Shown: piece after piece, positions 3,548 to 62,690 of the stretch
Numbering within the stretch: the stretch's first letter is position 1
Layout of the letters: every line of letters begins with the position of its first letter
Source: an uncultured Candidatus Saccharibacteria bacterium
GTDB taxonomy: Bacteria > Patescibacteriota > Minisyncoccia > Phycocordibacterales > CSBR16-119
Direction of reading: 5' to 3'
DNA length: 64,000 nucleotides
Assembly: GCA_964426385.1 (NCBI GenBank)
Contig: CAYRQF010000003.1
Span: 22,938 to 86,937, forward strand
Program-made: the position numbers and the translations under genes
Notes under the pieces: generated by a model
Told to the model about the DNA's origin: nothing
What the model saw: only the letters and a program-made list of their open reading frames with translations
Database searches by the model: none

Positions 3548-3619
3548 ATATCGATACTAGCCAAAGATGGCGATAAAATCAAACTTTTGAAATCATTAAC
3601 AAAAAGCTAGAATACTTTT

Positions 3620-4036: not shown

Positions 4037-4038
4037 AA

Positions 4039-4084
4039 ACAACACAGGGTCCCTCGCGTGTAGCGGGGACCCTGTTGTTTTTTG
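4039..4084. terminator. stem-loop terminator between convergent genes (likely bidirectional)
   Basis: acagggtccc...gggaccctgt stem followed by a T-run. Confidence 0.55.
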
Positions 4085-4094
4085 GCTGTGCGGC

Positions 4095-4265
4095 TTATTC
4101 GGATGATTGTCCAACCGTATTCAGCTTCTCCAGCGGCCCAGCGCACTTAGTGCAAACCCCGAGTGTGTCGGGATCATCGTCTTGGACATGCATGCATGAG
4201 GTACACTGCCAGCTTGCAGTGTCAGGTACCGCTGTCGTTGAGGTCAGGGCGTTGGTTTCAGGCAT
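4095..4265 (-). CDS. small zinc-ribbon protein (56 aa, CxxC...CxxC)
   Basis: Manual translation: MPETNALTSTTAVPDTASWQCTSCMHVQDDDPDTLGVCTKCAGPLEKLNTVGQSSE. A TTGCAA-17-TAAACT promoter-like sequence lies upstream on the minus strand. Not in the ORF track because it is under 60 aa. Confidence 0.4.
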   Translation of the reverse strand: MPETNALTSTTAVPDTASWQCTSCMHVQDDDPDTLGVCTKCAGPLEKLNTVGQSSE

Positions 4266-4353
4266 GGTCGTTGGTTTTGCTTAATAGTTTATTTAAAAAT
4301 ACAGAGCTTTGCAATCTTTTTGGAAACGTATCTCTGTGATACGATAAATACCT

Positions 4354-6220: not shown

Positions 6221-9200
6221 ATGAAATTGCAACGAGCATTTTTCTTGGTTATCGCATTAGTATTTCTAGTCGGCTTCACAGTTACTGTATCAGGACCGGG
6301 CGGTGCATCACAGAGAGCACAGGTGACTGGTGCTGTATCGAATCAATCTATCAGAGGCTACTCTCTGGTAAACGCAGACACTGATACGATAATCGGACCA
6401 CTCTCCGATGGTCAAACAATCGATCTCGCAGAGCTTGGCACGAATCATGTAAATATCGTTGCAGAGACATCTCCTTCTGTCGTCGGTAGTGTTGCGTTTC
6501 ATCTTGATGATCTTGCTCGTGTTGTCAAGAATAGCGCTCCATATGCTCTCGGCGGACACAACAACGCCGGCAATTTCTACGCGGCGAATCTCTCGGTCGG
6601 AGATCATACACTAAAGACTCAGGCATTTACTCTGGCCCGTGCTCGCGGACTGGGTAGTGCTGTAAGCGAGATTCGATTCAGCGTCGTCGGAGGATCGCCG
6701 AGATCGTCTGGTGGTCAAACTCAGGCTAGTTCTGATTCAACGACACCCATCTCTAACACACAGCAGACTCATTCGACTCCTGGCAATGTTGCGAATGTAA
6801 CAGGTGCTGAAGTCCAAGAAATCAAATCTTTCACTCTAATAAATGCTGACACCAACCAAGAGATAGTGGCGATAGAGAACGGTGCAGTTTTAGATATTCA
6901 GAATCTCGGTACCACGAATCTCACCATCAGGGCCAACGCTACTCCAACTAATGTCGGCTCAGTTAAGTTCTACCTTGATAGTGTGGCGGTGCGGACAGAC
7001 AATCTTTTTCCGTATACCAATGTCGCGAGTACAACAACTGATGATTATCGACCATGGTCATTTACTCCGGGACAAGAGTACTCAATAACAGCAATACCAT
7101 TTAGTCTCTCTCGCGCTCGCGGTGTAGAGGGTACACCGCTAACTGTTTCTTTCACCATCGGGCAAAATCCAGTCGGTGGGCATGAACCTGTAGTTGGACG
7201 ATCTATGGACCCTTCTGTTCCTGCTATGGGGTGTCTAACTGCTACGGTTACCAATGACCCAAATGGTGGCAATAACCCAGGCACCATAACCATCGATTGG
7301 CCAGATGTTTCTGGACATCCATACTATAAAGCTTGGAGAATTCAGAATGGACAAGTGGAAGTATCTACCGAAAATCAGGGTGGTGCCGTTACATATAACT
7401 CTATGACCCCTGGAACATGGACGATCAGAGTAGCTTTCCTTGAAGCGGGCGCACTACCAAACACAAGTGCAGACTGGGGACCAGAGTCTGAAATCAGTAA
7501 TCTCGTCATAAGTACTAGTATCCCAGGTCCTGTAACAACTACAACATGCGGGCAAGAGCCAGTCGAGTCTGCACAGCTCAAAGTGTTCCTTGGTGGAGCA
7601 TACAACTCCTCTACAGGACTTATGTCCACTGCACTTAATGATGCAAACGTTATACCTCTCACTGAACCTTACACGGGAGAAGGTTATCAGTTTACTAACG
7701 GCTCAGGCTCATCGATTTCTTCTGGCGTCCTCAACGCTACAGGAAATGACGCAATCGTTGATTGGGTTATCGTCGAACTACGAAATCAAAACAACAATCT
7801 AGATATAGTAAGTTCTCGCCCAGCACTACTACAAGCAGATGGAGAAGTCGTTGGTCTAAACGGCACTACTCCGATATTTGACTCTTTCTCTTCGGGCACA
7901 TACTACGTAGTCGTCCATCACCGAAACCACTTGGCTGTCATGACTGCGAATCCGGTCAACATCAGTAATTCTGTAGACTTGACCAACTCAACGCTCTGGG
8001 GAACCAATGCCGCCAAATTGGTCAGCGGAACAAAGGTTCTATGGCCAGGTGATGTTAATAATGATGGTCTCGTAAAATACACAGGCGGAAACAACGACAG
8101 AGATCCGATCCTCCAAGTCGTGGGCTCAAATACGCCAAATAATGTTGTTACAAACGCCTATGCAAAAGCTGACCTAAACATGGATAGCACTGTTAAGCAT
8201 ACTGGTACGAAGAACGACAGAGACATTATTTTCCAGTCGATAGGTTCAGTAGATCCAACAGTAGTGAATGTGGAACAATTACCTCAACCATCTAGTACCA
8301 CCATCACTTCTATACAGGTAGTAAATACACAGGGTGTGGTACAGCAGACACTTTCTGCTGGGCAGACTATCAACATAGGTACTCAAAATGGTGGCTACGG
8401 AACAAGCATTGCTCTCAAAGCCAACACTAGTACTAGTCCTGTACCAGGAAGTGTTAAATATACCCTCACGCGCGCAGGCAATACGCATGAAAATATAGAT
8501 AACGCTGCTCCATTCTCATCTCATGGTGATACAGGAGGAAACTATACAGCCTGGACCAGCCTACAGCCAGGCGCATATCATCTAACCGCTTTGCCATATG
8601 ATGGAGCTAATGCCACAGGAGCATCAGGTACGGGTGCAGACTTCGACTTCGTTGTCGTAAACAATGATACTGTCGCCCCTCTCGCGCCACAGAATGTATC
8701 AATCAATTACCGATCGGCAGATGAGATAAGACTCTCATGGAGTCCTTCAGTTGGTGCGACGAACTATCAGGTAGTAAGGACAGGTAATGGACAGACATTC
8801 CCACTTCAGTCTGGTACAACTTTTAACGACACCACTGGGCTAACAAGCAATGGAACATTCTCTTATGTGGTCACTGCCATTAACTCAAATGGTCAGGTGT
8901 CGCCTAACTCAACGTCTATCGATGCTCCGACTCTGTCACCAGCCTTCACAGCCGGTACACTGGTTGCTCCAAATGCCAACAATACCCAGGTTAGAGCACT
9001 GCCAGAGAATCCGACGCTTGTTGGAACTGTTAACACTACGAACAACGGATCTGTTGTTACCGGAACATCACCTTCAGGGCATGTTGTCTGGGTAAAGGGC
9101 GTTACCCCAGCTCCAGATGTCCGATATCTCCGAACCACATTTACCAGCCCTGCACTATCTGGTCCAGGCTGGGTAGATCAGACAAAGCTGATCACGTATG

Positions 9201-12200
9201 TTGCGCCGGCTGCACCACTGCCTCCAACTAACTTCACAGGCTCTGGCACATCAACCTCGAACATCAACCTCACATGGACAGATGTTGCTACAAATGAGAC
9301 AGGGTATGAGGTTCAGAGAGCGGCACTAACTGATACGAATTTTACTAGTCCGACAACGACCACTTACGGACCAAACTCTAACGCCACCTCGATATCTACC
9401 GGCCTCTCTGCGGGTACCGCATATCTATTCCGCATTAGAGCAGTTAGTTCGACAAGCGGACTCAATTCTGTGTGGGTTTACTCTGCCCCTGCTTCGATCT
9501 CTACGCAGGCTGCTCAGACAGCACCGAATGCACCAACTAACCTCACTGGTTCTGCTTCGTCGACATCACAAATAAATCTCTCATGGACAGATAATGCGAA
9601 TAATGAAACAGGCTTCACTCTTAATAGGGCTACAGCTCCTGATTTCAGTTCCGGATTTGTCACCACTAACGTGCCAGCAAACAGTCCGACAGCTCCAAGC
9701 ACGGTTAACCATCCTGTCACAGGGCTTGCTGCAGGACAGACATACTACTTCCAGGTTAAAGCGATAAATGGCACCGGAGATTCCGCTTGGGCAACTCCAA
9801 ACCCTCTTTCTGTGGCTACACAGAATGTTGTGGCCGGCACATGTAATCCTGGTACAGTTGCGCCAATGCTTCCACCGAACAACTCACCGGTTAATGACTT
9901 GTCTAGAACGAATGGTGCCAACAGATCTGTGCAGCTATCATCAGCTGTTACGGGTGCTAATCAGATAACGATATGTTGGGACACTGTTGCTCAGAGAACT
10001 ATAAGCGGCAGTATCTCTGTCTACAGGAAATCAGGTTACACTTCTACGAGCTGGGGTACAGCGATAGCTACTTTGGCTAATACAGAGACAAGTTATGTAG
10101 ACAATAGTGTTACCCAAGGCACTTATTACGAATACAAAGTATCTTTCTCACAGAGTTCAACTTCATCAGCAAGCGGTGTTAGCACTAACGGTACAGCCGC
10201 AGGATACATAGCTACTGGTATAAATGTTCCTGAGGAATCCAGCAGAGGTAAAATGGCCCTAGTTATAGACAACAGTATGGTAACCGGCACTAACGGAAGC
10301 GCTCCAACTGGAGGAGATTCAGCGCTTATGTCTAAAGTAAACACTCTAATAGATGACCTAAATGCTGACCGATGGACCGTCTATCCTATATACGTAGGAC
10401 GTGGTGATACCGTAGCAAGCGTCAAAGCGCTTATCGTTGCGCAGAATCCGGCCGCCATCTACTTGCTAGGACATGTTCCAGTAGATAAGACTCACACAAT
10501 GTCTCCTGACGGTCACGGAGATCAGATACCTTGGTCTTCAGACGCTTATTATTCCGTGTCAGGTACGTACGGAACAACTGTTGCCCCTGTTTATCAGATC
10601 GGCCGAGTCGATGCGTTCAAGATGGAGGTATTCGGCGCCGGTAATCCTTCTAGTGATGCTACCGCCGCTACAGCAGGAGAGAAAACTGTAATAGGAAATT
10701 ATCTGGACAAAGTACACAATTACAAGATTGGCTCCACTACTGTTCAGCAGAGAGCTATTATCAAGGACGCCCTTGATCACGCTTATTCCGGCTTCACTAG
10801 CGCACAAAATGCTACCGTTGGCGCTTGGTCAACATTCCCTTCAGTTGTTGGTTTGGCAAATACATATGTGACCAACGAGAGAGGAACTCTCTTGACTCCG
10901 TCTCTACAGGGCTCGAATGACACATACCTACTCATGCTTGCACAATCTGGTGGACAGTGTGACAGAGATAACGATTCAGCCACTGGAACATCTGCGGGAT
11001 TTGCGGCGATAAGCGGCGGAGCTGTGTTCAACATGGCCGGCGGCAGCCGTTTCGGAAGCTTCGATAACTGTATATCTTTCCGTGAAAATAACTTCTTAAA
11101 AGCGCTGCTGTTCGGTGGTAAAGGAATGGTTAGTCTCTATAGCTTAGATCATCACTGGTATCTCCACTCTCTGGCCATGGGACAGAATATTGGTTATGCG
11201 ACCAAGGTGTCCATGAATAATCACTCTACTCAGGTTTATACACCAGTCAGTTGGTATCAACAGCGAAATTACAACGCTTTTATGAGTCCACTCGGCGATC
11301 CATCTATTCGCGCCTCATACTTTACCATCCCGTCGACGTTTACTGCGAGCGGTACGGCAGGAAACCCTATAAACTTCTCATGGAGCAGTGTTTCAGGAGC
11401 AGAAGGCTACAATGTCTACAAGATTACTTCATCTGCTGTGACTAAACTTAACAGCTCGATGATAGCAAGTACGTCATACACAGGATCTGAAATATATACC
11501 TCAGGAGCCAAATACATGGTGACTGCGCTCGACCTTACGACCTCAGGAAGCGGTGGAACATATTATAGAGAATCCCTCGGAAAGATGACTCTCACAACAG
11601 GTGGAGGCGGAGGAGACTTGGCAGCTCCGACTACACCAGGAAGCTTCGCGGTGAGTGGAACAACTGCCTCAAGCGTAAATCTTACATGGACGGCCTCTAC
11701 AGGTAATCCAGTAGGAGAGGCGGTAACTTACAAGATCCTCCGAAGCAGTGCGACAAACGGCACATATACTCAGGTTGGAACCGATACTGCTTCACCTTAC
11801 TCCGACACGACTGTTACTGCAGGCAACACTTACTACTACAGGATTACAGCTTCTGATGCTGCAAGTAACACTTCACAGCCTGCACCCTCAGCGTCTACAG
11901 GCATCTCTGCTACAACTGTAGACAACCAAGCACCTTCTGCACCGGCAGGACTTATGTCGACAGCACAGACGACGGGAAGCATTACACTCACTTGGAACGC
12001 CTCCACGGGTAACCCTGTAGGCGAGACCATTAACTACAAGGTCTTCCGAAGTACGACAGCTAACGGAACATACACTCAGACAGGTAGCTCTACAACTAAT
12101 ACAACATTCACTGATTCAGGACTAACAGCGGGAACAACTTATTACTATAAAGTGTCTGCAACAGACGCTTCCAATAACTCTTCCGCTCAAAATCCTTCTT

Positions 12201-14989
12201 CGGGTTACGGTGCTGCGACAAGTGCTCAAGCGGACACTCAGCCACCAACCGTACCGACAGGTCTTGCTGTTACAGCAACTACAGCTTCAAGTATTTCGTT
12301 ATCTTGGAATGCTTCAACTGATGTTGGAGGAAGTATCGTACAAGGGTATCTCATTTATCGTAGCGCAACGAGCGGTGGTACATATGACACCATAGGAAGT
12401 TCTAGTGGTACTTCATATACTGATTCTGGTCTTGCCCCTAATACAACTTACTATTACAAGGTTACGGCAATTGATAACTCCCCTAACGGCAATCAGTCTG
12501 CTCAGACACAGTATGTTTCTGGTACAACTGCTGCTGTTACCGGAGGTGGCTCAGGACAGGTACTTGGTCTCATGGGTGTATACGCAGGACCAAACAACAG
12601 TGAGGACGTAACACCGGGAGCTAACCCAGCAGGTGTGTCAGACTACTACGTTGACTGCGTCGCTGGAAATGACAGTAATAATGGAACTTCAGCCGCTACT
12701 GCATGGAGAACACTAGAAAAATTCAACACTTCAGGCGCCGGCCAGATGCAACCAGGATCTAGAGCGTTCTTCAAGAGAGGATGTACGTTCTATAAAACAG
12801 ATGTATATCCGATGGGAATATATGATGGTGGAATCCTCAGGGTTTCTAACTCAGGAAATGCATCAAACTATGTAGAATATAGGGCCTACGGCACAGGAGC
12901 GGCTCCAGTATTCTCTGGCGCGGTACCTGTTACTGGCTGGACTCAACACCAGGGAAATATTTACAAGGCAAACATCGGAGCAAATAAGAACGTTCGATAC
13001 TTGTTTGCCAACAACTCTGGCCAGACACTCGCTCGCTTCCCAAACAAGAGTGCTGGTAATACAGTCTGGATGAAGACAGATCATATCACTAACCCTGGAG
13101 GAGTATCTCTCAATGTCGAAGACTCGTCTTCTACTGATGGAGCACTTCCAACCTCTACAGCAAATAACCTAGCTGGAGGTGAATATGCAGCTAGGTTTAT
13201 GAACTGGGCCTTCGTGGTTGCGCCGATTACAGCCCATTCAGGTCAGACCATTACCGTTTCATTCCAGGGTGGAATGAACCAGGTGCCATGCTACATACCA
13301 AACTGCTCTAACACCATTTATCCTGAAGCTGGCTGGGGATACTTCGTTCAGAACAAGCTATCCCTCCTAGACACCGCAGGTGAGTGGTACTACGACAATG
13401 CCTCTGGTCAACTCTACTTCTGGGCGCCAGGCGGAGTGAATCCGAGCACTATGACTGTAGAAGCGGCAGTTCACCGAAACGGTGTTCACATGCTCGGTGG
13501 TATCCATCATGTAAAGGTAAAGAACCTTGCGTTCGAGAAGTTCAACAAATTCAGTTACGGAAGTTCTGACAAGGGTGCGGCGGTGTTCATTCAAGACTGG
13601 GATGGATCGTCTGGAGTACTCAGTAACATCGTTGAGAATGTTGAGATCAAGAATACTCCTATCGGTGTTCGCGTCGAAGGTGTCGAATCAACAGGACCAT
13701 CAAACGGTAACAAAATACTCAATTCTTATATTCATGACATATTCGACATTGGAATGCTCTCATACGGTCTCGGCCACCTCTACCAGGGTAACGTGATTGA
13801 GAATATCGCTCTGGCCCCTGAGCTTGCCGCTGACACCGATGAGTGGAACCATATGTACGGCTTCGTCTCAACCGGTGGTAACGTTGACTTCATCGGCAAT
13901 ATAGTACGAAATATCGGTTACATCGGAGTTAACTATGTTCAGAACGGTGAAATCCGGAATAACTTAATCGAAAACATATCTCTAACTATTAACGATGGTT
14001 GTGGTATCTGCGCCGATGGAGCAGAGAATGATCTCCTCGTGAAGAGAAATGTTGTTAACCATGTGTACGGAAACATTGTTGGCCTACCTTCAACATTCGT
14101 TCATGCGACAGCGCTTGGCTCAGGTATATCAACAGGCGATAGGAATAGTATCGGTGGAATCTTCGAGGAGAATGTTGTTAACGATGCTGGAAACTCTGGT
14201 ATCACGTTCGACAACAATACCTTCTCGGCGAATATGCAGATGAGGAATAACACGATTTACACGAATCAGCCGGGTAACTCTAACGGTGCTAAGGGTATCT
14301 CAATGTATGATCAGTCTGTGGGCGTATATCACCCAGGAGAGAACAATGCCCAGTCACTCTATGACTTCGATTTGGGTCACAGTGTATACGGTAACAAGGT
14401 TTACACACTACATCAGAACAACAACAGTCTCTATGAGGCACGCGTTCTAACTTCTACAAGTGGTGGACATACAGACTTTGGAGATTATTGGGGCAATTAC
14501 TTCTTCCACCCATACTCTACTAACACAATCGTGAATTATCGACCAGCACCGTTGGTAACCACAGGAGACCTTATCTGGACTCTCACAAATGCACCAGTTT
14601 ATTCAACGGCAAGCACGAACACATCTTCCGGCACTGTGTCAACAGGAACAAAAGGTTATATCTCAGGTACTGAGTCAAACTACCGATGGTTCGTAACTTT
14701 CAACAACGGACAATCTGGCTGGATGAGGTCTTATGAAATCGCAATGGCAAAGAAGAACATCGCAGAATTCCAGCAGGTTTATAACCAGCCTCCATCCGGA
14801 CAGCCTCAGAACACACAGCGTGGAGTAGGGGATTCACTGCCGACGCTTTATGTCAACACAACTGGCTCTCCGATGTCCGCGAATATCGGTTCCGGTAAGT
14901 GCGGAAGTAATGGTCAGACACTCGCAAATCCTTACCCACTTAACACCTTTGCTGATGCGATTGTTCCAGAGATATGTAGCGAGCAATAA
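6221..14989 (+). CDS. giant secreted surface protein (2922 aa): N-terminal repeated beta-sandwich-like domains, dockerin-like Ca-binding repeat pair, at least 6 fibronectin-III domains, central Cys/His globular domain, C-terminal right-handed parallel beta-helix
   Basis: Signal peptide. FN3 signature xAPxNLxxxxxSxxxIxLxWT...NETGY repeated. DVNNDG...NDRD appears twice. NxxIxNN beta-helix rungs near the C-terminus. Confidence 0.9.
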   Translation: MKLQRAFFLVIALVFLVGFTVTVSGPGGASQRAQVTGAVSNQSIRGYSLVNADTDTIIGPLSDGQTIDLAELGTNHVNIVAETSPSVVGSVAFHLDDLARVVKNSAPYALGGHNNAGNFYAANLSVGDHTLKTQAFTLARARGLGSAVSEIRFSVVGGSPRSSGGQTQASSDSTTPISNTQQTHSTPGNVANVTGAEVQEIKSFTLINADTNQEIVAIENGAVLDIQNLGTTNLTIRANATPTNVGSVKFYLDSVAVRTDNLFPYTNVASTTTDDYRPWSFTPGQEYSITAIPFSLSRARGVEGTPLTVSFTIGQNPVGGHEPVVGRSMDPSVPAMGCLTATVTNDPNGGNNPGTITIDWPDVSGHPYYKAWRIQNGQVEVSTENQGGAVTYNSMTPGTWTIRVAFLEAGALPNTSADWGPESEISNLVISTSIPGPVTTTTCGQEPVESAQLKVFLGGAYNSSTGLMSTALNDANVIPLTEPYTGEGYQFTNGSGSSISSGVLNATGNDAIVDWVIVELRNQNNNLDIVSSRPALLQADGEVVGLNGTTPIFDSFSSGTYYVVVHHRNHLAVMTANPVNISNSVDLTNSTLWGTNAAKLVSGTKVLWPGDVNNDGLVKYTGGNNDRDPILQVVGSNTPNNVVTNAYAKADLNMDSTVKHTGTKNDRDIIFQSIGSVDPTVVNVEQLPQPSSTTITSIQVVNTQGVVQQTLSAGQTINIGTQNGGYGTSIALKANTSTSPVPGSVKYTLTRAGNTHENIDNAAPFSSHGDTGGNYTAWTSLQPGAYHLTALPYDGANATGASGTGADFDFVVVNNDTVAPLAPQNVSINYRSADEIRLSWSPSVGATNYQVVRTGNGQTFPLQSGTTFNDTTGLTSNGTFSYVVTAINSNGQVSPNSTSIDAPTLSPAFTAGTLVAPNANNTQVRALPENPTLVGTVNTTNNGSVVTGTSPSGHVVWVKGVTPAPDVRYLRTTFTSPALSGPGWVDQTKLITYVAPAAPLPPTNFTGSGTSTSNINLTWTDVATNETGYEVQRAALTDTNFTSPTTTTYGPNSNATSISTGLSAGTAYLFRIRAVSSTSGLNSVWVYSAPASISTQAAQTAPNAPTNLTGSASSTSQINLSWTDNANNETGFTLNRATAPDFSSGFVTTNVPANSPTAPSTVNHPVTGLAAGQTYYFQVKAINGTGDSAWATPNPLSVATQNVVAGTCNPGTVAPMLPPNNSPVNDLSRTNGANRSVQLSSAVTGANQITICWDTVAQRTISGSISVYRKSGYTSTSWGTAIATLANTETSYVDNSVTQGTYYEYKVSFSQSSTSSASGVSTNGTAAGYIATGINVPEESSRGKMALVIDNSMVTGTNGSAPTGGDSALMSKVNTLIDDLNADRWTVYPIYVGRGDTVASVKALIVAQNPAAIYLLGHVPVDKTHTMSPDGHGDQIPWSSDAYYSVSGTYGTTVAPVYQIGRVDAFKMEVFGAGNPSSDATAATAGEKTVIGNYLDKVHNYKIGSTTVQQRAIIKDALDHAYSGFTSAQNATVGAWSTFPSVVGLANTYVTNERGTLLTPSLQGSNDTYLLMLAQSGGQCDRDNDSATGTSAGFAAISGGAVFNMAGGSRFGSFDNCISFRENNFLKALLFGGKGMVSLYSLDHHWYLHSLAMGQNIGYATKVSMNNHSTQVYTPVSWYQQRNYNAFMSPLGDPSIRASYFTIPSTFTASGTAGNPINFSWSSVSGAEGYNVYKITSSAVTKLNSSMIASTSYTGSEIYTSGAKYMVTALDLTTSGSGGTYYRESLGKMTLTTGGGGGDLAAPTTPGSFAVSGTTASSVNLTWTASTGNPVGEAVTYKILRSSATNGTYTQVGTDTASPYSDTTVTAGNTYYYRITASDAASNTSQPAPSASTGISATTVDNQAPSAPAGLMSTAQTTGSITLTWNASTGNPVGETINYKVFRSTTANGTYTQTGSSTTNTTFTDSGLTAGTTYYYKVSATDASNNSSAQNPSSGYGAATSAQADTQPPTVPTGLAVTATTASSISLSWNASTDVGGSIVQGYLIYRSATSGGTYDTIGSSSGTSYTDSGLAPNTTYYYKVTAIDNSPNGNQSAQTQYVSGTTAAVTGGGSGQVLGLMGVYAGPNNSEDVTPGANPAGVSDYYVDCVAGNDSNNGTSAATAWRTLEKFNTSGAGQMQPGSRAFFKRGCTFYKTDVYPMGIYDGGILRVSNSGNASNYVEYRAYGTGAAPVFSGAVPVTGWTQHQGNIYKANIGANKNVRYLFANNSGQTLARFPNKSAGNTVWMKTDHITNPGGVSLNVEDSSSTDGALPTSTANNLAGGEYAARFMNWAFVVAPITAHSGQTITVSFQGGMNQVPCYIPNCSNTIYPEAGWGYFVQNKLSLLDTAGEWYYDNASGQLYFWAPGGVNPSTMTVEAAVHRNGVHMLGGIHHVKVKNLAFEKFNKFSYGSSDKGAAVFIQDWDGSSGVLSNIVENVEIKNTPIGVRVEGVESTGPSNGNKILNSYIHDIFDIGMLSYGLGHLYQGNVIENIALAPELAADTDEWNHMYGFVSTGGNVDFIGNIVRNIGYIGVNYVQNGEIRNNLIENISLTINDGCGICADGAENDLLVKRNVVNHVYGNIVGLPSTFVHATALGSGISTGDRNSIGGIFEENVVNDAGNSGITFDNNTFSANMQMRNNTIYTNQPGNSNGAKGISMYDQSVGVYHPGENNAQSLYDFDLGHSVYGNKVYTLHQNNNSLYEARVLTSTSGGHTDFGDYWGNYFFHPYSTNTIVNYRPAPLVTTGDLIWTLTNAPVYSTASTNTSSGTVSTGTKGYISGTESNYRWFVTFNNGQSGWMRSYEIAMAKKNIAEFQQVYNQPPSGQPQNTQRGVGDSLPTLYVNTTGSPMSANIGSGKCGSNGQTLANPYPLNTFADAIVPEICSEQ

Positions 14990-32858: not shown

Positions 32859-32867
32859 TGAGCTTTG

Positions 32868-32963
32868 AGTGGCTAGCTTATAGCTTTTAGAAATCAAAAA
32901 TCCCCGTGAGGGGATTTTTGATTGGTGTCCCATAAGCTAAAAGCAATCAGCTAGAAGCTACTT
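32868..32963. repeat. inverted pair of the short AGCTAKAAGCTAAAAGC repeat family flanking the fusA terminator
   Basis: Left arm ctagcttatagcttttag (reverse orientation) and right arm ataagctaaaagcaatcagctagaagcta bracket the hairpin at 32896-32919. Confidence 0.7.
32896..32919. terminator. stem-loop terminator aaaaatccccgtgaggggattttt
   Basis: Perfect hairpin with A and T runs on both sides, so bidirectional. Confidence 0.65.
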
Positions 32964-33248
32964 TGTGGCGAAATAGCTCATAGCGATGCCGAATATGCAC
33001 ATGGCTCCTATAACAGGTCCTAGCACCCAGACGTTTGACGGTGTGATGGCAACAACTAGAGCGGTCATGATGACTGCCGCCGTACCAACGCTCTTGGATA
33101 TGGATATCAAATGAAATTCGTCTACAGGTGGTCGTTTGGCGACGACAACTTTGTCTTGGAGAGGCTTTGAACCAAAACCTTTACGAACCTTCTTCTTTGA
33201 GGAAGATTTTTTCTTTGGTTTAATTTGTAATTCTATTTCGTTAGCCAT
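32958..33248 (-). CDS. small basic membrane protein (hypothetical)
   Basis: Lys-rich N-terminus and two C-terminal TM helices. Start chosen at MANEIE; the ORF track extends to 33314. Confidence 0.45.
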   Translation of the reverse strand: MANEIELQIKPKKKSSSKKKVRKGFGSKPLQDKVVVAKRPPVDEFHLISISKSVGTAAVIMTALVVAITPSNVWVLGPVIGAMCIFGIAMSYFATK

Positions 33249-33373
33249 AGTTAGAAGTTTAACGCTCATTAAGTATAAACAATGATACGTAAAAAAGATA
33301 AGAGTTTTGCACACATTTTTATTTTTCAGCAGTTTTTGTTCGCGACAAGATGTAATTTTGATATAATTTAAGC

Positions 33374-50963: not shown

Positions 50964-53900
50964 ATGGATAAGGATACATCTACTCCGAAGAAGTCCGACG
51001 CCGCTCTCAAGGAAGAGGCGGTACTTAAATTCTGGGCGGATAATGGTATTTTCGAGAAAAGCTTGGCCAAGGATTCACCAAAAGGCGAGTTCGTTTTCTT
51101 CGAGGGTCCGCCAACGGCGAACGCCAAGCCAGCACTTCACCACCTAGAAGCCCGCGCCTTCAAAGACGTTATCCCTCGTTACAAGACCATGCAGGGCTTC
51201 CATGTCCGTCGCCAGGGAGGCTGGGACACTCACGGACTTCCTGTAGAGCTCCAGATCGAGAAGAAGCTCGGACTCAACTCGAAGAAAGCTATCGAGGAGT
51301 ATGGTATCGAGAAATTTAACCGTGAATGTCGGGAGAGCGTTTTCCAGTACATTAAAGACTGGGAAGACTTCACCGACCGTATCGGATACTGGGTGGACAA
51401 AAAGAACGCGTACTTCACATTCGACAATTCCTACATCGAGTCTGTCTGGAATGTCATGGCCAAGGTAAACGAGCGGGGACTACTCTACAAAGACTACCGT
51501 ATCGTGCCATGGTGTTCACGTTGCGGAACGCCACTCGCGTCACATGAGCTCGCACAGGGCTACGAAGATGTAAAAGATCTTTCGATATTCGTAAAATTCA
51601 AAGTAGTAGGCGCCACGAATACATATCTGCTCGCTTGGACGACGACGCCTTGGACTCTCCCCGGCAATGTCGCGTTGGCTGTTGGAGAAAAGATTGATTA
51701 TGTGAAAGTGAAAATCGGCGAAGAACTTCTGATTCTTGCCAAAACTCGGCTTGAGGTTTTAACCGAAAGTTACGAAATAGTAGAAGAAATAAAAGGTTCA
51801 GACCTGGTAGGGCTTTCATACGAACCACTATATCCATTCATCGCCAATTCACTAGAAGCTAAAAGCGATAAGCTAGAAGCTAGTTTTAAAGTATATTCTG
51901 CAGACTTCGTCACGACCGAGGATGGAACAGGTATCGTTCACATCGCACCTATGTATGGCCAGGACGACTTCGAGCTTGGGACCAAGATCGGGCTTCCGAA
52001 AGAACATGTAGTTGGAGTTGATGGTAAATTCCTCCCAGACACCGGTTTTTTCTCTGGAAGATTCGCTATGGAGAAAGATGAGAACGGCAAACCGACACTC
52101 GCTGTTGATGTCATAAACGACCTTACTACACGGGGGCTATTCTTTGGGAAGAAAAATTACGAACACACGTATCCACATTGTTGGCGATGTAAAACTCCGC
52201 TCATATATTACGCACGCGATTCTTGGTACATCCGCATGTCGGAGCTTCGTGATGAGCTGGTTAGAGAAAATGAAAGCATCAACTGGGAACCATCTCATAT
52301 AAAAGAGGGTCGCTTCGGCGAATGGCTACGTGAAATCAAAGACTGGGCAATATCCCGTGAGCGTTACTGGGGTACACCGCTCCCAGTCTGGGTAGCCGAA
52401 GACGGAGAGAAGTGGGTTGTGGGAAGCGTCGACGAACTCCGCAAGCATACCAAGCAATCTATAACTAAGATTATTTTTGTAAGACACGGACAGTCCGATG
52501 CAAATGTTGCACTTGTTTCTTCTAGTGTTCGTGACGCCCACCCACTAACGGAGCTTGGTCAAAAGCAGGCCAGGGATACCGCTGAGAAACTCCAGAGTCA
52601 TGACATTGACGTCGTTTATTGTTCGCCGATTCTACGTGCGAGACAAACAGCAGAGGCTTATCTGGAGTTGGCTGGAAAAGAAATGATGTTAGATGATCGT
52701 CTCGCTGAGATTGGTAGTGGTAGTTGGGAGGAGAAGACCCAACATGACCCGAGTATAAAGGCAGAGCGTGATGCTTATAAAGCTATGTCGCCAGATGAGA
52801 GGTTCGTGTTTAAACGCGGAAGTACTGGCGAGAGTTGGTCTGACTTACAAACTCGGGTAAAAGATTTTTTAGATGAAGTGCTCGCGAAGCATGCTGGCAA
52901 GACTATTGTTTGTTTTGCCCATCAGGGGACTGACGAGATAGGAATAAAACTGCTAAGAAGTTTGGATAACAAATATGCCGCAGAAAATCTCTTTCATGAG
53001 ATTGAGAATGGGGAAGTATTTCCTTTGTATATTGATGACAGAACTCAGAAGGAGTTCGATCTCCATCGTCCATTTATTGATGACGTAGTTCTAGAAAAGG
53101 ATGGTAAAGAATTCCGCCGAGTCAAAGAAGTCATGGATGTCTGGTTCGACTCTGGCGCCATGCCGTTCGCTCAACACCACTATCCGTTCGAGAACAAAGA
53201 GTACGTTGATGGCCCGGGCTATCCGGCAGACTTCATCTCCGAAGCCGTCGACCAAACTCGTGGTTGGTTCTATACGCTTCATGCCGTGGGAGTGCTTATG
53301 GGCAAGGGCCGTGCATACAACAATTGTATCTGTCTCGGGCACATCCTCGACGACAAGGGCAAGAAGATGAGCAAATCTATCGGTAACATCGTGAACCCTT
53401 GGGAGATGATGGACAAATACGGCGTAGATACTCTACGTCTCTGGATGTACTCGGTGAACCAGCCGGGAGACTCGAAAAACTTCGACGAGAAAACTGTGGC
53501 GGAGCTCCGTAATAAAATATTTAACCTACTTTATAACGTCATTGCATTCTACGAGCTTTATCGCGACAAATCACTAGAAGCTAAAAGCGATAAACTAGAA
53601 GCTAGTTCTAACGTTCTGGATATCTGGATACTAGAACGCCTCGCCGAGCTCTCGAATACCATGACGACGGGTCTAGATAGTTACAAACTGATGGAGCCGG
53701 TTCGAGCTATGCGTGAATTTATCGATGAACTTTCCACGTGGTATGTTCGTCGTTCGCGTGATCGCCTGAAGGACGGTGATCAAGATGCAAAACGTACTCT
53801 ATATATCGTACTGAAGAATATGGCCCGTTTCCTGGCTCCATTTGCTCCTTTTGCCGCCGAGGATATTTGGCAGACTTTACGTACGGACGCTGACCCATTG

Positions 53901-54368
53901 AGTGTGCACCTCGCAAACTGGCCCGACCAGAAGCCGACTGACCCGAAAATCTCCGAGGATATGCAGTCTGTCCGTGAGCTTGTTACTCTAGGTCTCGAGC
54001 TCCGTCAGAAGAGTGGAGTTAAGGTCAAACAACCTCTCGCAAGCTTTACTGTAACCAAGGAGCTAGCAGTCGAATACCAAGAGCTTCTAAAAGATGAGCT
54101 CAACGTTAAAGAGATTGCCGTCGGCGAAGCTGTTGGTTTAAACACGGACATCACACCAGAGCTCAAGAGGGAGGGAGACTTCCGAGAATTCCTGCGAAAC
54201 GTTCAGGGTCTTCGTAAAGACGCAGAACTTTCTCCGAACGACATGGTTACTTTGATTGCCCCAGAATCCTCTAAAGAGGTAATCATCGGTTTTGAAGGTG
54301 AGCTCAAGAAAGTTGCCGGGATAAAAGAAATAAAATTCGAAGGAGAGGAAATTAGGATAGAAAAATAA
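50964..54368 (+). CDS. ileS: isoleucyl-tRNA synthetase with an inserted histidine-phosphatase (PGAM-like) domain and two in-frame SLEAKSDKLEAS repeat insertions
   Basis: PHCWRCKTPLIYY, KMSKS, WFDSGAMP and DIWILERL motifs. Insert ~52465-53050 carries RHGQSDAN, LTELGQKQA, SPILRARQTA and AHQGT motifs. Confidence 0.95.
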   Translation: MDKDTSTPKKSDAALKEEAVLKFWADNGIFEKSLAKDSPKGEFVFFEGPPTANAKPALHHLEARAFKDVIPRYKTMQGFHVRRQGGWDTHGLPVELQIEKKLGLNSKKAIEEYGIEKFNRECRESVFQYIKDWEDFTDRIGYWVDKKNAYFTFDNSYIESVWNVMAKVNERGLLYKDYRIVPWCSRCGTPLASHELAQGYEDVKDLSIFVKFKVVGATNTYLLAWTTTPWTLPGNVALAVGEKIDYVKVKIGEELLILAKTRLEVLTESYEIVEEIKGSDLVGLSYEPLYPFIANSLEAKSDKLEASFKVYSADFVTTEDGTGIVHIAPMYGQDDFELGTKIGLPKEHVVGVDGKFLPDTGFFSGRFAMEKDENGKPTLAVDVINDLTTRGLFFGKKNYEHTYPHCWRCKTPLIYYARDSWYIRMSELRDELVRENESINWEPSHIKEGRFGEWLREIKDWAISRERYWGTPLPVWVAEDGEKWVVGSVDELRKHTKQSITKIIFVRHGQSDANVALVSSSVRDAHPLTELGQKQARDTAEKLQSHDIDVVYCSPILRARQTAEAYLELAGKEMMLDDRLAEIGSGSWEEKTQHDPSIKAERDAYKAMSPDERFVFKRGSTGESWSDLQTRVKDFLDEVLAKHAGKTIVCFAHQGTDEIGIKLLRSLDNKYAAENLFHEIENGEVFPLYIDDRTQKEFDLHRPFIDDVVLEKDGKEFRRVKEVMDVWFDSGAMPFAQHHYPFENKEYVDGPGYPADFISEAVDQTRGWFYTLHAVGVLMGKGRAYNNCICLGHILDDKGKKMSKSIGNIVNPWEMMDKYGVDTLRLWMYSVNQPGDSKNFDEKTVAELRNKIFNLLYNVIAFYELYRDKSLEAKSDKLEASSNVLDIWILERLAELSNTMTTGLDSYKLMEPVRAMREFIDELSTWYVRRSRDRLKDGDQDAKRTLYIVLKNMARFLAPFAPFAAEDIWQTLRTDADPLSVHLANWPDQKPTDPKISEDMQSVRELVTLGLELRQKSGVKVKQPLASFTVTKELAVEYQELLKDELNVKEIAVGEAVGLNTDITPELKREGDFREFLRNVQGLRKDAELSPNDMVTLIAPESSKEVIIGFEGELKKVAGIKEIKFEGEEIRIEK
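51849..51885 (+). repeat. 36-bp repeat cactagaagctaaaagcgataagctagaagctag, in-frame within the ileS editing-domain region
   Basis: Near-identical copy at 53571-53606; related copies at 61387-61417 and 32868-32963. Confidence 0.8.
53571..53606 (+). repeat. 36-bp repeat copy, in-frame within the ileS anticodon-binding region (1 nt different from copy 1)
   Basis: tcactagaagctaaaagcgataaactagaagctagt. Confidence 0.8.
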
Positions 54369-58866: not shown

Positions 58867-59934
58867 ATGATAGATCGAACATACACTATAAATATAAGCC
58901 GTCGAACCCTATCTAATATCGTGATTCTGGGTTTGGTAGTCTTCGCTCTGTTCATTATGAAAGAGCTTGTTTTCGTTATTCTTACCTCTGTAGTCTTGGC
59001 CTCGTTCATCCGCACAGCTGCGGTGTCAGTGAAAAATCGCTTCGGACTGTCTAGGATACTATCCGTTGCGCTGATGTATCTCATTACATTCTGTGCATTG
59101 GCGGGAATATTCTATTTCTTCATTCCTGTGTTAGTGGTTGAGATATCTAACCTCTTGCCGGTTTTGACCAAATACCTACCAGCAAATCTGCCAATAGTTC
59201 AGAATCTTGATATCGATACATTGGGGGCTATAAGTACAGAGGGTGTTGCGGCGGGAGAGAGCCTCGGTCCGCTCGTCGACAATTTCCGGTCTTTTTTGCT
59301 CATACTAGCGTCAGGATTCGGCAATACTTTGTCTGCATTCTTCGGCGGGGTATTGAACATAGTGGTAGTCATCGTCGTTTCGTTCTATCTCTCGGTCTCG
59401 GCAGATGGTATCGAGTCATTCCTGCGTATACTTTCACCTATCGATAAAGAGGCCTATGTGATAGATCTGTGGAAGAGGTCTCAGCGCAAGATTGCCCTTT
59501 GGATGCAGGGTCAGCTTTTTCTCGGAGTCGTTATCGGAATCCTGACGTTTATCGGACTCACACTTCTCGGTGTTCCGCAGGCGATACTTCTCGCCGTTGT
59601 CGCCGCGATATTTGAACTCATTCCGTTTGGAATATTTTTGGCAGCTGTACCAGCGATATCTATCGCTTACGGTGGAGGAGGTATATCTCTCGCATTGATG
59701 GTCGCCGCACTTTATACCATTATCCAACAGCTCGAGGGCTATCTCATCTCGCCACTCGTTATGAACAAGATGACAGGAGTTTCCCCGCTGGTGGTCATCC
59801 TTTCAGTTTTGGTGGGTGTTCATCTGGCTGGATTCTGGGGGTTGATACTCGCTGTCCCTGTCGCCGTAACTCTGCTTGAGTATGTTAACGATCTCGAAAA
59901 AGAACGCATCCTTCGATTACAAAATGAGCAATAG
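58867..59934 (+). CDS. AI-2E family transporter (UPF0118/PerM-like)
   Basis: 8-TM pattern. AVVAAIFELIPFGIFLAAVP. The ORF track starts at 58801, overlapping glyQS. Confidence 0.75.
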   Translation: MIDRTYTINISRRTLSNIVILGLVVFALFIMKELVFVILTSVVLASFIRTAAVSVKNRFGLSRILSVALMYLITFCALAGIFYFFIPVLVVEISNLLPVLTKYLPANLPIVQNLDIDTLGAISTEGVAAGESLGPLVDNFRSFLLILASGFGNTLSAFFGGVLNIVVVIVVSFYLSVSADGIESFLRILSPIDKEAYVIDLWKRSQRKIALWMQGQLFLGVVIGILTFIGLTLLGVPQAILLAVVAAIFELIPFGIFLAAVPAISIAYGGGGISLALMVAALYTIIQQLEGYLISPLVMNKMTGVSPLVVILSVLVGVHLAGFWGLILAVPVAVTLLEYVNDLEKERILRLQNEQ

Positions 59935-61405
59935 ACCTGTATATATAACTACGACGCTTCCATACGTGAACAACGACCCTCATGTCGGTTTTGCCATGGA
60001 GATAATCCGTGCGGACGTACTAGCTCGATACCATAAGCTTATGGGTAAAGAGGTTTTTTTCAATACCGGAACAGACGAGCATGGACAGAAACTCCTCGCT
60101 GACGCAATGAAGGCAGGGAAGGAGGTCAAAGACTACGTCGATTTTTACGCCGAGAAGTTCCGTGGACTGAAAGACCTCCTTAATATCACCGACGAAGTCC
60201 ACTTTATCCGCACGACCGATGTCCATCATGAGGCAGCAGCACAGGCTCTCTGGAAGCTCGTCGATGGCAATGGCTACATCTACAAGAAAAATTACCAGAC
60301 CAAATACTGTGTCGGCTGCGAGCTCGAGAAAACAGATTCTGAACTAGGTGACAAGGGTCAGTGTCCGATACATCCAAACAAGGAAATAGAACTAATCGAT
60401 GAGGAGAATTACTTCTTCGCTTTTTCAAAGCTCGAGGGAAAACTTAAAGAGCTATATGATAATAATCCTCGTCTCGTTATTCCGGAATTCCGTTTCAACG
60501 AGATGAAGGCATTCCTCGACAGGGGTCTCCAGGACTTTTCTATATCCCGTCAGAAGGAAAAGATGTCGTGGGGTGTGCCGGTACCAGGGGATGACAAACA
60601 TGTCATGTATGTTTGGTTCGACGCACTCACGAACTATATCTCTACACTAGGGTGGCCAGAGGACGCTGAAGGCAACTATGCGAAATTCTGGCAGGACGGC
60701 CTAAAAATCCAGTACTGCGGTAAGGATAACCTCCGTCAGCAATCTATGATGTGGCAGGCGATACTTCTCGCAGCGAATCTACCAAATACAGATCATATAA
60801 TCATCGATGGGTTCATAAACTCTGGTGGACAGAAGATGAGTAAGTCTTTGGGAAACGTTATAAATCCTTACGACCTTATAAAAGACTATGAATCTGTTGC
60901 AGGAGATCTTGCACCAGATGTTTTGCGTTATTACATGCTTCGTCATGTAAATCCTTTCGAGGATTCAGACATGACACTTGATACATTTAAGGAAGCCTAT
61001 AATTCAGGTCTAACAAACGGACTAGGTAATTTGGTTTCTAGGGTGATGAAAATGGCCACTACTTATGGTGTGAGTCTTTCGGAGGATGAAAAAACAATGA
61101 CTTATTATGGTACAGGAACAGAAGATTTTTTGAATGACTACAATATGATGATAAAAATGGATGAGATTTGGGCAAATTTTAAAAGTATTGATGAGTCTAT
61201 AACAAGAACTGAACCCTTTAAGAAAATAAAGACAGATCCAGATCAAGCAAAAAGCGACGTCCATACAATGTTGGTCCATTTGCTTGGAGGTGCTCTCGCG
61301 TTGGAACCATTTTTACCTAAAACATCTTTAATTCTGCAAGTTCTAATAAAAGAGAATAAGATGCCTGAAACTCCGCTCTTTAACCGTCTAGAAGCTAAAA
61401 GCTAA
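59924..61405 (+). CDS. metG: methionyl-tRNA synthetase (short form); the last codons come from the short repeat (…RLEAKS)
   Basis: HVGF (HIGH-like) motif, KMSKS, single Zn-knuckle. The ORF track starts at 59876. Confidence 0.9.
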   Translation: MSNRPVYITTTLPYVNNDPHVGFAMEIIRADVLARYHKLMGKEVFFNTGTDEHGQKLLADAMKAGKEVKDYVDFYAEKFRGLKDLLNITDEVHFIRTTDVHHEAAAQALWKLVDGNGYIYKKNYQTKYCVGCELEKTDSELGDKGQCPIHPNKEIELIDEENYFFAFSKLEGKLKELYDNNPRLVIPEFRFNEMKAFLDRGLQDFSISRQKEKMSWGVPVPGDDKHVMYVWFDALTNYISTLGWPEDAEGNYAKFWQDGLKIQYCGKDNLRQQSMMWQAILLAANLPNTDHIIIDGFINSGGQKMSKSLGNVINPYDLIKDYESVAGDLAPDVLRYYMLRHVNPFEDSDMTLDTFKEAYNSGLTNGLGNLVSRVMKMATTYGVSLSEDEKTMTYYGTGTEDFLNDYNMMIKMDEIWANFKSIDESITRTEPFKKIKTDPDQAKSDVHTMLVHLLGGALALEPFLPKTSLILQVLIKENKMPETPLFNRLEAKS

Positions 61406-61417
61406 CAGCTATAAGCT
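61387..61417 (+). repeat. short-repeat copy ctagaagctaaaagctaacagctataagct spanning the metG stop and ending at the tatD ATG
   Basis: Matches the AGCTAKAAGCTAAAAGC-N4-AGCTAKAAGCT family. Confidence 0.7.
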
Positions 61418-62203
61418 ATGCGTTACTTCGATATCCATTCGCATCTAAACCTTTCGCCTCTATCGGAAGATAAGGCGAGGATCATAAAAACTCTCGAGGA
61501 AAAAGAAGTGAGTACAATTACTGTGGGTGTTGATCTCGTAACTTCTGAACAAGCTGTCGAGATCGCACAGGATAGCGTGAATCTTTTTGCTTCTGTAGGC
61601 TTTCACCCATCAGACGCGGGGAAGAAAGAGTTTGATGCAGAAAAATTCCGCGATCTCGCGGGTAGGGAAAAAGTAGTCGCCATCGGCGAATGCGGATTAG
61701 ATTACTTCCGGGTAGAGTCGAGCGACACTGAGACCAAGAATTTGCAGAAAGAAATTTTTATAAAACAAATCGATTTATCTATCGATAAAAATTTACCACT
61801 TATCCTCCATGTTCGTCCACAGAAGGGGACAATGGACGCCTATGAAGATGTTTTGGAAATTCTCCAATCTTACTCTCGCAAAAAACCAAGAGGCGACGTG
61901 CATTTTTTCGTTGGTTCTCCGGAAATTGCCCAAAGATTTTTGAGTCTAGGTTTTTACTTGTCATTCACTGGGGTTGTCACATTTGCCCGAGACTATGACG
62001 AAGTCATCAGACTCACCCCATTAGACCGTATCCTTACAGAAACCGATGCACCATTCGTCACACCCGTTCCATATAGGGGGCAGACATGCGAGCCATGGAT
62101 GGTGGAGGAGGTAGTCAGAAAGATTGCTGATATCAAGGGGCTCGAACTGGAAGAATTCCGTCTCCAAGTGATTCAGAACACCAAAAGCCTTTTTGGGGTC
62201 TAG
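61418..62203 (+). CDS. tatD: TatD-family metal-dependent deoxyribonuclease
   Basis: MRYFDIHSHL, ...HFF..., ETDAPF motifs. Confidence 0.9.
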   Translation: MRYFDIHSHLNLSPLSEDKARIIKTLEEKEVSTITVGVDLVTSEQAVEIAQDSVNLFASVGFHPSDAGKKEFDAEKFRDLAGREKVVAIGECGLDYFRVESSDTETKNLQKEIFIKQIDLSIDKNLPLILHVRPQKGTMDAYEDVLEILQSYSRKKPRGDVHFFVGSPEIAQRFLSLGFYLSFTGVVTFARDYDEVIRLTPLDRILTETDAPFVTPVPYRGQTCEPWMVEEVVRKIADIKGLELEEFRLQVIQNTKSLFGV

Positions 62204-62234
62204 GTACTTGACAGAAGTGCGTACCCATGATATC

Positions 62235-62690
62235 TTTTGAAATATAGAAATTGGTGATTCACCCGAAGAGATCTCCTGGGCTGTCGCTCCAGGAACAAGA
62301 CTTTTAGGGTATGCGGGTCACTCCGTTAAACTGAACGAACTGCAGTTTCTGGTGGGTTCTCGGCGGGGAGTCGTGCGCGTTGGCGAACAGTCGCACGCTC
62401 TCCTCTGGGAACCATGTTCTTCAATCAACACCCTTCGGGGTTCATCATAAGTGAGCGTGCGTCTGTTCCTGCAGGGAAAACGGGCTTGGTGGTGGCCTTG
62501 CCATCCTTGCGACGATGCATTTCTCGCCCACGAGCCTAGCGACCATGTCGCTGGGCTCGTTCCTTTTTTACCTAATATTGCGCCCATTTACTATTACCAA
62601 GCCTTCTGATAGTATGACCCTAACGTTTCGTTCGACTGCCTTGAAATTACAGGCCGTCGCTTGGTCCGATACGATGCGTTTTTTCTTTAT
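62235..62690 (+). ncRNA. candidate structured non-coding RNA, unidentified class; strand uncertain
   Basis: ~450 nt with no credible ORF in any frame. GC clearly above flanks. Multiple perfect hairpins (CGAGCC-AGCGAC-catg-GTCGCT-GGCTCG; ACCC-UUCG-GGGU). Ends in a T-run. TTGACA-17-TATCTT promoter-like sequence at 62207-62235. Confidence 0.3.

Follow-up and report, generated by a model that had tools for sequence, protein, structure and literature searches.

What is a short repeat doing when it supplies both the last codons of one gene and the nucleotides that touch the start codon of the next? The question is raised by the junction between metG, encoding methionyl-tRNA synthetase (MetRS), and tatD in a 64,000-nucleotide (nt) stretch of DNA, hereafter the window, from an uncultured Candidatus Saccharibacteria bacterium (contig CAYRQF010000003.1, positions 22,938 to 86,937), a small-genome member of the candidate phyla radiation (CPR). 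An earlier note on this DNA had described the repeat as two half-sites separated by an N4 gap and had likened it to elements of the repetitive extragenic palindrome (REP) and miniature inverted-repeat transposable element (MITE) types. We found instead a tandem array of heptanucleotides, with strong evidence of purifying selection on its nucleotides. Our best overall explanation, to which we give a probability of roughly 0.55, is that the junction is a heptamer-family locus that grew by duplication of 7-nt units and acts as a spacer for translational initiation or reinitiation, hereafter (re)initiation.

A Heptanucleotide Array Joins metG to tatD

In the list of open reading frames (ORFs), the MetRS gene (493 amino acids; Pfam tRNA-synt_1g; 100% match to protein P0001 over 493 amino acids) occupies positions 59924..61405 of the plus strand, and tatD (Pfam TatD_DNase, 241 bits, E = 1.8e-71) positions 61418..62203 of the same strand. 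Across their boundary, direct reading of the sequence gives an array of 4.3 units at 61388..61417 on the plus strand, CTAGAAG-CTAAAAG-CTAACAG-CTATAAG-CT (ctagaagctaaaagctaacagctataagct), that is, a short imperfect head-to-tail tandem array of 30 nt with the unit CTANAAG or, equivalently, AAGCTAN. Tandem Repeats Finder (TRF) reported for 61388-61418 a period of 7, 4.4 copies, 83% matches, and the consensus CTAAAAG; it returned period-7 head-to-tail arrays at two sites in ileS as well, and the two half-sites with their gap have to be given up. The motif AGCTAWAAGCT occurs three times in the window against 0.07 expected, and a 25-mer allowing ≤3 mismatches twice against 0 expected. The junction is identical in three independent contigs of the same strain, and an identical isoleucyl-tRNA synthetase (IleRS), both of its arrays included, is encoded in two independent assemblies; the sequence is therefore genuine and not an assembly artefact.

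As the earlier note had stated, the repeat supplies the end of MetRS (...RLEAKS-stop) and adjoins the tatD ATG. The 3' end of metG reads CTA GAA GCT AAA AGC TAA (...PLFNRLEAKS*), its last five codons and stop codon (61403-61405) lying inside the array, an overlap of 18 nt, and the tatD ATG (61418) follows the array with a gap of 0 nt, in a reading frame common to the two genes. All three frames are closed within the array, by TAG at 61389-61391 (+1), TAA at 61396-61398 (+2), and, in frame 0, the TAA at 61403-61405 together with a second in-frame TAA, read directly from the plus strand at 61412..61414. Because forward heptamer arrays of this kind carry stops in three frames, they can overlap only the extreme 3' end of an upstream ORF.

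The lone junction array appears to be unstructured, the fold of 61370-61450 having a free energy of -9.9 kcal/mol (z = -0.08). No inverted partner was found within 500 nt and no palindrome, terminal inverted repeat (TIR), or target-site duplication (TSD) at the array, and comparison of the relatives' junctions revealed no duplication. A consensus scan for sigma-70 promoters and terminators gave nothing at the junction, and Rfam yielded zero families over the whole window at the gathering threshold and, near the junction at E<=1, only a spurious small nucleolar RNA match. Neither tRNA nor transfer-messenger RNA (tmRNA) genes were found in the window, and a literal sequence search of the literature for these arrays retrieved no relevant paper.

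The Repeat Creates the MetRS C-Terminal Tail

The array starts with the CTA codon for the Leu of ...PLFNR-L, the conserved C-terminus of MetRS, to which it adds four residues (EAKS). In an alignment of 120 orthologues, most sequences end at ...PLFxRL (+0-2 amino acids) or ...PLFLRKD, without an EAKS tail, and a minority end in RLEAKS (P0005, P0008, and P0009), RLEAKG, RLEASH, or RLTPNA, depending on the heptamers present. An EAKS-type tail without the repeat, which would have spoken against the note's proposal that the element remodels gene termini, was not encountered: the array was present in every such orthologue whose DNA was retrieved. Since in all array-bearing relatives the array runs from the Leu codon of R-L to the ATG, it is the repeat that creates the MetRS tail, whose sequence varies with the heptamers; in relatives devoid of an array the junction reads TAA/TAG-N-ATG. 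The remodelling of this terminus is thereby borne out. Selection at the protein level on the LEAKS peptide was also considered and ruled out, copies being found in noncoding DNA and in both orientations, with frozen synonymous sites.

Conservation and Variety of the Junction in Relatives

We compared the syntenic DNA of ten relatives at the metG-tatD junction. The window-type array was found in L124, L126, L133, and the metagenome contig L236, thus, with the window itself, in five lineages; other heptamers occupy the junction in L130 (CTAGAAG-CTAGCCA-CTAGAAG-CT-ATG), L131 ((CTAACGC)x3-CT-ATG, encoding LTPNA), and L129 (a degenerate six-unit array), and none is present in L127/L128, L132, and L134. 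Across its five lineages, whose overall genome identity is ~70%, the window-type array is 28-30/30 identical, with a constant number and order of units (G, A, AC, T). Its 120-nt flanks are 53-81% identical, and codons specifying the same amino acid are identical in only 35-57% of cases. As a control, mean identity over positions -30..-1 was 29-58% for nine other syntenic genes, save for a promoter-like region before proS (83%). The near-invariance of the array while flanks and synonymous sites diverge points to purifying selection on nucleotides, for which, as judged from these alignments, the evidence is strong over the whole 30-nt cassette.

The unlike junction arrays of L124 and L131, which are 92% identical, might be taken as a sign of rapid turnover; this was rejected, the last ~120 metG codons being a recombination replacement. 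The flanks of these two loci are 92-99% identical, with ileS (1103-4492) and metG codons ~376-495 replaced by divergent alleles, and we read both aminoacyl-tRNA synthetase genes of L124/L131 as recombination mosaics.

Other Copies in the Window

A profile search of the 64 kb with nhmmer gave four full copies, at 51854-51885 and 53576-53607 (ileS), 61388-61419 (metG), and 32930-32961 (downstream of fusA), and one partial reverse copy at 32873-32891, i.e., five loci per 64 kb, with none in a further 4.7 kb. The junction repeat had been assigned to the same family as "insertions" in ileS. The kinship holds, as the ileS copies and the junction array have in common the 15-mer CTAGAAGCTAAAAGC, followed by N6 and then by CTAKAAGCTA, and TRF reported at 51852-51883 and 53574-53605 a period of 7, 4.6 copies each, and the consensus CTAGAAG. 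Site 1 (51849..51884, plus strand) reads in frame TCA CTA GAA GCT AAA AGC GAT AAG CTA GAA GCT AGT (SLEAKSDKLEAS); site 2 (53571..53606, plus strand) holds another in-frame array, which matches site 1 at 35/36 positions and occurs in the window lineage only. The reading frame is that of metG (CTA = Leu), and, as the third unit has CGATAAG in place of CTAA.., the stop is lost and the array can be read through as SLEAKSDKLEAS.

It is the word "insertions" that does not stand. The array at site 1 is also found in L133 and L134, with 1-3 changes in 33 nt, and is absent from L132 (the closest relative, 81% IleRS identity), L124, and L127; distant IleRS orthologues have an equally long loop at this position (..SEKxKLEKAFKVY), so that site 1 is no simple insertion. 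At site 2 the window carries 36 nt in place of 30 (SLETSEVPKS in L132), with conserved codons on either side (S-L-E and S) and no target duplication; rather than transposition, the event suggests ectopic gene conversion from site 1 at microhomology. In a 120-sequence alignment the two sites are variable loops, rich in indels. At the position of site 2, L124 carries another sequence, an in-frame perfect palindrome (3705-3735; CCACTTGGGGG-TCCAA-CCCCCAAGTGG) that is unique among the fetched loci, and the loop seems to accept differing repeat-like sequences. IleRS itself (50964-54368) contains at residues 503-667 a histidine phosphatase domain (PF00300 His_Phos_1, 124.7 bits), inserted in the catalytic domain and also present in all 120 best IleRS homologues (Paceibacterota); a brief literature search found no description of this insertion.

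Downstream of fusA, the forward array (32930..32961, plus strand) supplies with its last unit the TAG stop (32958-32960) of the minus-strand ORF 32958-33314. The partial reverse array (32873..32891, minus strand) lies 15 nt past the fusA stop and pairs with the forward array across a terminator core (32891-32923), the region 32860-32965 folding into a long hairpin between convergent genes (-42.9 kcal/mol, z = -6.2).

These copies bear on the idea of a REP/MITE-like non-autonomous transposable repeat that inserts in spacers, gene ends, and permissive loops. Such an element would account for the dispersal of the family, which is present in some relatives and absent from others at rpsF, rpsR, ileS, and tatD, for the recent, lineage-specific copy at ileS site 2, and for the inverted pair flanking a terminator. 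On structure, however, it is largely refuted: palindrome or hairpin, TIR, and TSD are all missing at the junction, which also has no inverted partner, the arrays measure only 30-36 nt, below the size of MITEs, and their make-up is that of tandem heptamers. Moreover, the array at ileS site 2 took the place of other sequence between homologous codons that were already there, and the one at the junction is old and has kept its position. We therefore do not retain the likeness drawn by the earlier note and consider transposition very improbable.

The Heptamer Family in the Clade and across Phyla

The dispersed short-repeat family that had been proposed is real: a phase-aware census of ~230 kb (the window and ten relatives) found 20 arrays against 0 in shuffled sequences, 18 of the 20 on the gene strand. 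When arrays were counted by period in 227 kb of the clade, period 7 gave 10 against 0 after shuffling, and periods 8-10 gave 0. Arrays lie 4-17 nt upstream of rpsF (L124, L126, L131, and L133), rpsR (L133), and adk (L133); those upstream of rpsF follow a conserved leader-like RNA motif and precede the ATG, and so lie inside the 5' untranslated region (UTR). Upstream of rpsR, L133 carries a cassette that matches the tatD cassette of L126/L236 at 30/30 positions. The presence of the same 30-mer at rpsR and tatD implies that a specific 30-mer, beyond the mere unit, was copied between gene starts and retained. Other heptamers occur at gene boundaries of the clade, CGACTTA after recO (L124/L131 5645-5671) and TGACTAG at the ssb stop (L132 22292-22312).

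The census also bears on the possibility of an uptake signal, comparable to DNA uptake sequences (DUS) and uptake signal sequences (USS), in a naturally competent CPR bacterium, where it would be maintained by uptake bias and recombination. A motif conserved across related species, synonymous sites included, in-frame copies in variable loops, an inverted pair forming a terminator, and abundant recombination mosaics between relatives would all suit such a signal. Its density would not, with only ~5 copies per 64-69 kb vs ~1 per kb, nor would the orientation bias along genes (18/20), the tight positioning beside start codons, and the long tandem arrays that AAGCTAN forms in unrelated phyla. We regard this as the least probable of the explanations considered.

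Scans for AAGCTAN of public genome contigs and, with a stricter pattern, of metagenomes gave at least 120 matches each, those from metagenomes being mostly high-GC soil contigs; the counts below refer to arrays among the matches listed. These come from Acidobacteria-like high-GC soil contigs, gammaproteobacteria, Bacteroidota, cyanobacteria, and many CPR lineages, and 104/115 are intergenic. Around the 115 listed arrays, from many phyla, no common neighbour gene (transposase, reverse transcriptase, or regulator) was found, the largest families being generic and including GT4 glycosyltransferases. Their position relative to start codons was examined for 210 de-duplicated arrays from two public scans, with ORFs of >=70 amino acids: a start codon lies <=15 nt downstream in 49 forward vs 10 reverse cases (p = 2.7e-7), and <=5 nt downstream in 30 vs 6.

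GT4 glycosyltransferase genes of other CPR bacteria (Paceibacterota, Saccharibacteria) contain in-frame AAGCTAN arrays (L059 2442-2476 and 4723-4757; L030 6281-6308), read as KLKAISYKLEAS, KLQAKSYKLKA, and TSYKLQAT. In six high-GC soil contigs (L145, L154, L180, L220, L225, and L247), a forward array with a CTAGGAG unit, containing a GGAG that resembles a Shine-Dalgarno (SD) sequence, lies upstream of an orthologous MAKPAAPAA... gene; just before it is an inverted array, TAGCTTCTAGCTCCT, its exact complement, and the pair is predicted to form a hairpin that would sequester the GGAG.

Given such a wide distribution of 7-nt repeats, could the junction array be a neutral heptameric microsatellite, produced by replication slippage and tolerated without function in a permissive stop-start spacer? 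Heptameric simple sequence repeats (SSRs) are over-represented in bacteria, for which polymerase slippage has been proposed (Mrazek 2007, as cited in PMC4692102). In 866 kb of unrelated loci among the matches listed, perfect tandem repeats of period 7 numbered 141, against 1, 8, and 5 for periods 5, 6, and 8, respectively. The idea that AAGCTAN is a uniquely favoured unit was itself rejected, since viral contigs contained AAGTCAN x4 at 52 loci, AAGCTAN x4 at 24, and AGACTAN x4 at 4, a permuted control being at least as common as the unit. The other heptamers at the junction in L129-L131, and their lack in three relatives, are likewise what slippage would leave. Against it stand the 28-30/30 identity and the fixed number and order of units in five lineages with near-saturated synonymous sites, the mere 29-58% identity of other upstream regions, and the identical 30-mer at a second locus. 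As imperfect four-unit arrays are poor substrates for slippage, this process alone explains neither the invariance nor the copying to ileS site 2, and we consider a wholly neutral origin unlikely.

A Candidate (Re)initiation Spacer

The genome in which the array is found appears to be largely devoid of SD sites. Homologues of its MetRS and IleRS are labelled Paceibacterota, Nomurabacteria, or Parcubacteria, and only 1/43 window genes has an SD-like sequence, upstream regions being AU-rich. In many window genes a TATAAT lies ~7 nt before the ATG (e.g., proS 57492 and recO 54913), a geometry that suggests leaderless mRNAs for many of them.

The explanation that we favour, a heptamer locus grown by 7-nt duplication and acting as a (re)initiation spacer, would start from an ancestral junction of the form stop-N-ATG, as in L127, L132, and L134, in which slippage or duplication would have placed 7-nt units after the Leu codon and ahead of the ATG. 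Entire cassettes would then have been copied elsewhere by short-patch recombination at microhomology, for example to ileS site 2 and to rpsR in L133. Transcribed in sense, the cassette would give an A-rich, unstructured, stop-rich spacer forming the (re)initiation region of the downstream gene: whatever their frame at the end of metG, ribosomes would stop inside the array and begin again at the ATG, 12 nt farther on. A factor reading the 7-nt periodic motif, or a cleavage leaving a near-leaderless tatD mRNA, may also take part.

The functional half of this explanation, a (re)initiation spacer in an SD-less genome, is held more tentatively, at somewhat less than even odds, and several points weigh against it besides its being something that we infer. 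The tatD of array-less relatives is apparently functional with a 1-nt spacer, and the array is therefore not required for coupling. SD sites being lacking genome-wide, their absence near the array is uninformative. Within ileS site 1, synonymous positions are conserved (0-1 changes per 10 same-amino-acid codons, about half of the flanking ones differing), and no start codon follows this array, so that a start-proximal role cannot cover all copies. The permuted unit AAGTCAN x4 is commoner than AAGCTAN x4 in viral contigs (52 vs 24 loci). Lastly, in two independent cases AAGCTAN arrays end 4-8 nt before genes for stable RNAs and in their orientation: L250 164-191 is upstream of tRNA-Ser (196-285), and L165 1862-1892 and L237 3178-3208 are upstream of tmRNA (1901- and 2766-3170, respectively). 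The class is therefore not confined to protein-coding starts, and these arrays fit a role in transcription start or processing better than a translational one.

These last cases lead to a reading in which the element works at the level of DNA or transcription, as a site for a regulator or nucleoid protein, a promoter part, or a 5'-processing signal upstream of gene 5' ends. In addition to the arrays before tRNA-Ser (L250) and tmRNA (L165, L237), it would draw on the many genes that look leaderless, with TATAAT ~7 nt before the ATG, and on the TAnAAG hexamer found in each array unit; conservation inside the ileS ORF at site 1 is compatible with a DNA-binding site, and in Nostoc heptamer repeats influence promoter activity and regulator binding (bioRxiv 10.1101/2022.06.06.494920). 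At the junction, however, the consensus scan gave no sigma-70-like promoter, all units lack the conserved final T of a -10 box, and only 2 nt separate the TATAAG from the tatD ATG, so that a transcript beginning ~7 nt downstream would lack the start codon. Furthermore, the arrays upstream of rpsF lie downstream of the leader-like RNA, inside the 5' UTR, and metG-tatD is an operon-internal junction in array-less relatives. A role of this kind strikes us as improbable for the junction array.

Several features of the surrounding DNA may be recorded here. Immediately before proS, 30 nt show 83% conservation in a comparison of six lineages. The spacer between tatD and rpsF contains (62208-62570) a promoter of the sigma-70-like type (TTGACA-17-TATCTT), ~330 nt of GC-rich sequence, and a strong terminator (62530-62560); the GC-rich sequence, which has no Rfam match, may be an unannotated noncoding RNA. 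At 62617-62690, a motif GCGTTTCGTTCGACT...GTCCGATA...TTTTTT is conserved in L124, L126, and L127 and resembles an rpsF leader. A large plus-strand ORF of 2922 amino acids occupies positions 6221-14989 of the window.

A bolder form of the (re)initiation spacer hypothesis, which we regard as doubtful, would make the 30-nt sequence CTAGAAG-CTAAAAG-CTAAC(A/C)G-CTATAAG-CT a portable, sequence-specific expression signal of SD-less Patescibacteria, read by a putative factor (the ribosome, an S1-like protein, an RNase, or an RNA-binding protein) that would act on (re)initiation or on the formation of 5' ends. If this were so, AAGCTAN would amount to a "heptamer code" upstream of gene 5' ends in Acidobacteria-like soil bacteria, gammaproteobacteria, and CPR bacteria. 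Since no frame stays open through the cassette, the protein termini next to it (EAKS, LTPNA, LEASH) would be rewritten whenever it is gained, lost, or point-mutated, and one altered unit would allow it to rewrite protein loops, as in ileS and the GT4 glycosyltransferases. A recognizing factor, if it exists, would offer a tractable way into CPR translation or RNA processing. If there is none, the locus calls for caution in annotation, C-terminal tails and loop "insertions" of CPR proteins being possibly encoded by repeats. It provides in any case a worked example of a stop-rich repeat that rewrites a protein C-terminus and that, once two bases are changed, is translated as part of an essential enzyme.

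Comparison with Known Systems

REP sequences and bacterial interspersed mosaic elements (BIMEs) are built from a unit that is an imperfect palindrome forming a stem-loop, in association with a RAYT-type transposase, and MITEs have TIRs, produce a TSD, and measure ~50-500 bp. The arrays described here resemble these elements in being short dispersed repeats in spacers, touching gene ends, with an inverted pair at a terminator; they differ by their non-palindromic units, the absence of TIR and TSD, the lack of a known tie to a transposase, for which the 64 kb available were not searched, the arrangement as tandem heptamers, and the appearance of the new ileS copy by replacement. Rickettsia palindromic elements (RPEs) are palindromes of ~100-150 bp inserted in frame into genes. 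Like them, the copies at ileS sites 1 and 2 and in GT4 genes are read through in frame, in essential genes and variable surface regions; unlike them, the arrays are of 30-36 nt, non-palindromic, and mostly outside ORFs, and ileS site 1 is no insertion when compared with distant orthologues. DNA uptake sequences (Neisseria DUS, Pasteurellaceae USS) occur about once per kb with no orientation bias. Conservation of a motif across species, permissive coding sites included, and inverted pairs serving as terminators are common to both systems, whereas our arrays are at least ten-fold sparser, biased in orientation (18/20), associated with start codons, and tandem.

Closer parallels are found among heptameric repeats. 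SSRs of this kind include GGGAATC in Xanthomonas, GGGGA(C/T)T in Nostoc, and the tandem heptanucleotides of Calothrix (Rehm 2015, PMC4692102), and for the over-representation of heptamer SSRs in bacteria a polymerase-slippage hypothesis has been put forward (Mrazek 2007, as cited in PMC4692102). They have in common with our arrays an intergenic period-7 tandem structure, sometimes as inverted pairs between convergent genes. Those of PMC4692102 are G-rich, quadruplex-prone, and highly variable in length and sequence between close relatives, whereas the metG-tatD array is A-rich, unstructured, and invariant in five diverged lineages. In Nostoc, start-proximal heptamer repeats are reported in a preprint to affect expression, promoter activity, and regulator binding, with no mechanism given (bioRxiv 10.1101/2022.06.06.494920).

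The closest resemblance is to the TAACTGA repeats of Beggiatoaceae, cyanobacteria, and Bacteroidetes, which comprise 2-6 units, with "split" sets that include related heptamers (MacGregor 2015, PMC4679880). They are mostly intergenic and forward, ending ~1 nt before a start codon that has no SD, and 14 of them overlap the end of the upstream ORF; they contain stops in three frames, have no predicted structure, and occur occasionally inside ORFs at protein peripheries, and a translational role via S1, Csp, or CsrA-like proteins has been proposed (PMC4679880). The junction array agrees with them in its 7-nt head-to-tail unit, its forward position before the ATG, its overlap with the end of the upstream ORF, its stops in three frames, and its lack of structure. 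It differs in the unit (CTANAAG/AAGCTAN), in the host, a CPR/Paceibacteria genome lacking SD sites, in the conservation across lineages and loci of a specific 30-nt cassette beyond the unit, and in having forward in-ORF copies that are readable thanks to the changed third unit CGATAAG.

Taken together, the 7-nt head-to-tail units, their forward orientation toward a start codon, the three-frame stops, and the lack of intrinsic structure make it highly probable that the junction array belongs to the known class of bacterial heptanucleotide direct repeats, here in a CPR bacterium. Heptamer repeats near start codons have been reported for decades from few bacterial groups, with functions no more than putative, and its conservation makes the present array well suited to testing what such repeats do. 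What the metG-tatD junction adds to them is an example from the CPR, where genes are without SD sites, and an unusually clean comparative case for selection at the nucleotide level, in which saturated synonymous sites contrast with 30 invariant nt and the cassette recurs at other gene starts.

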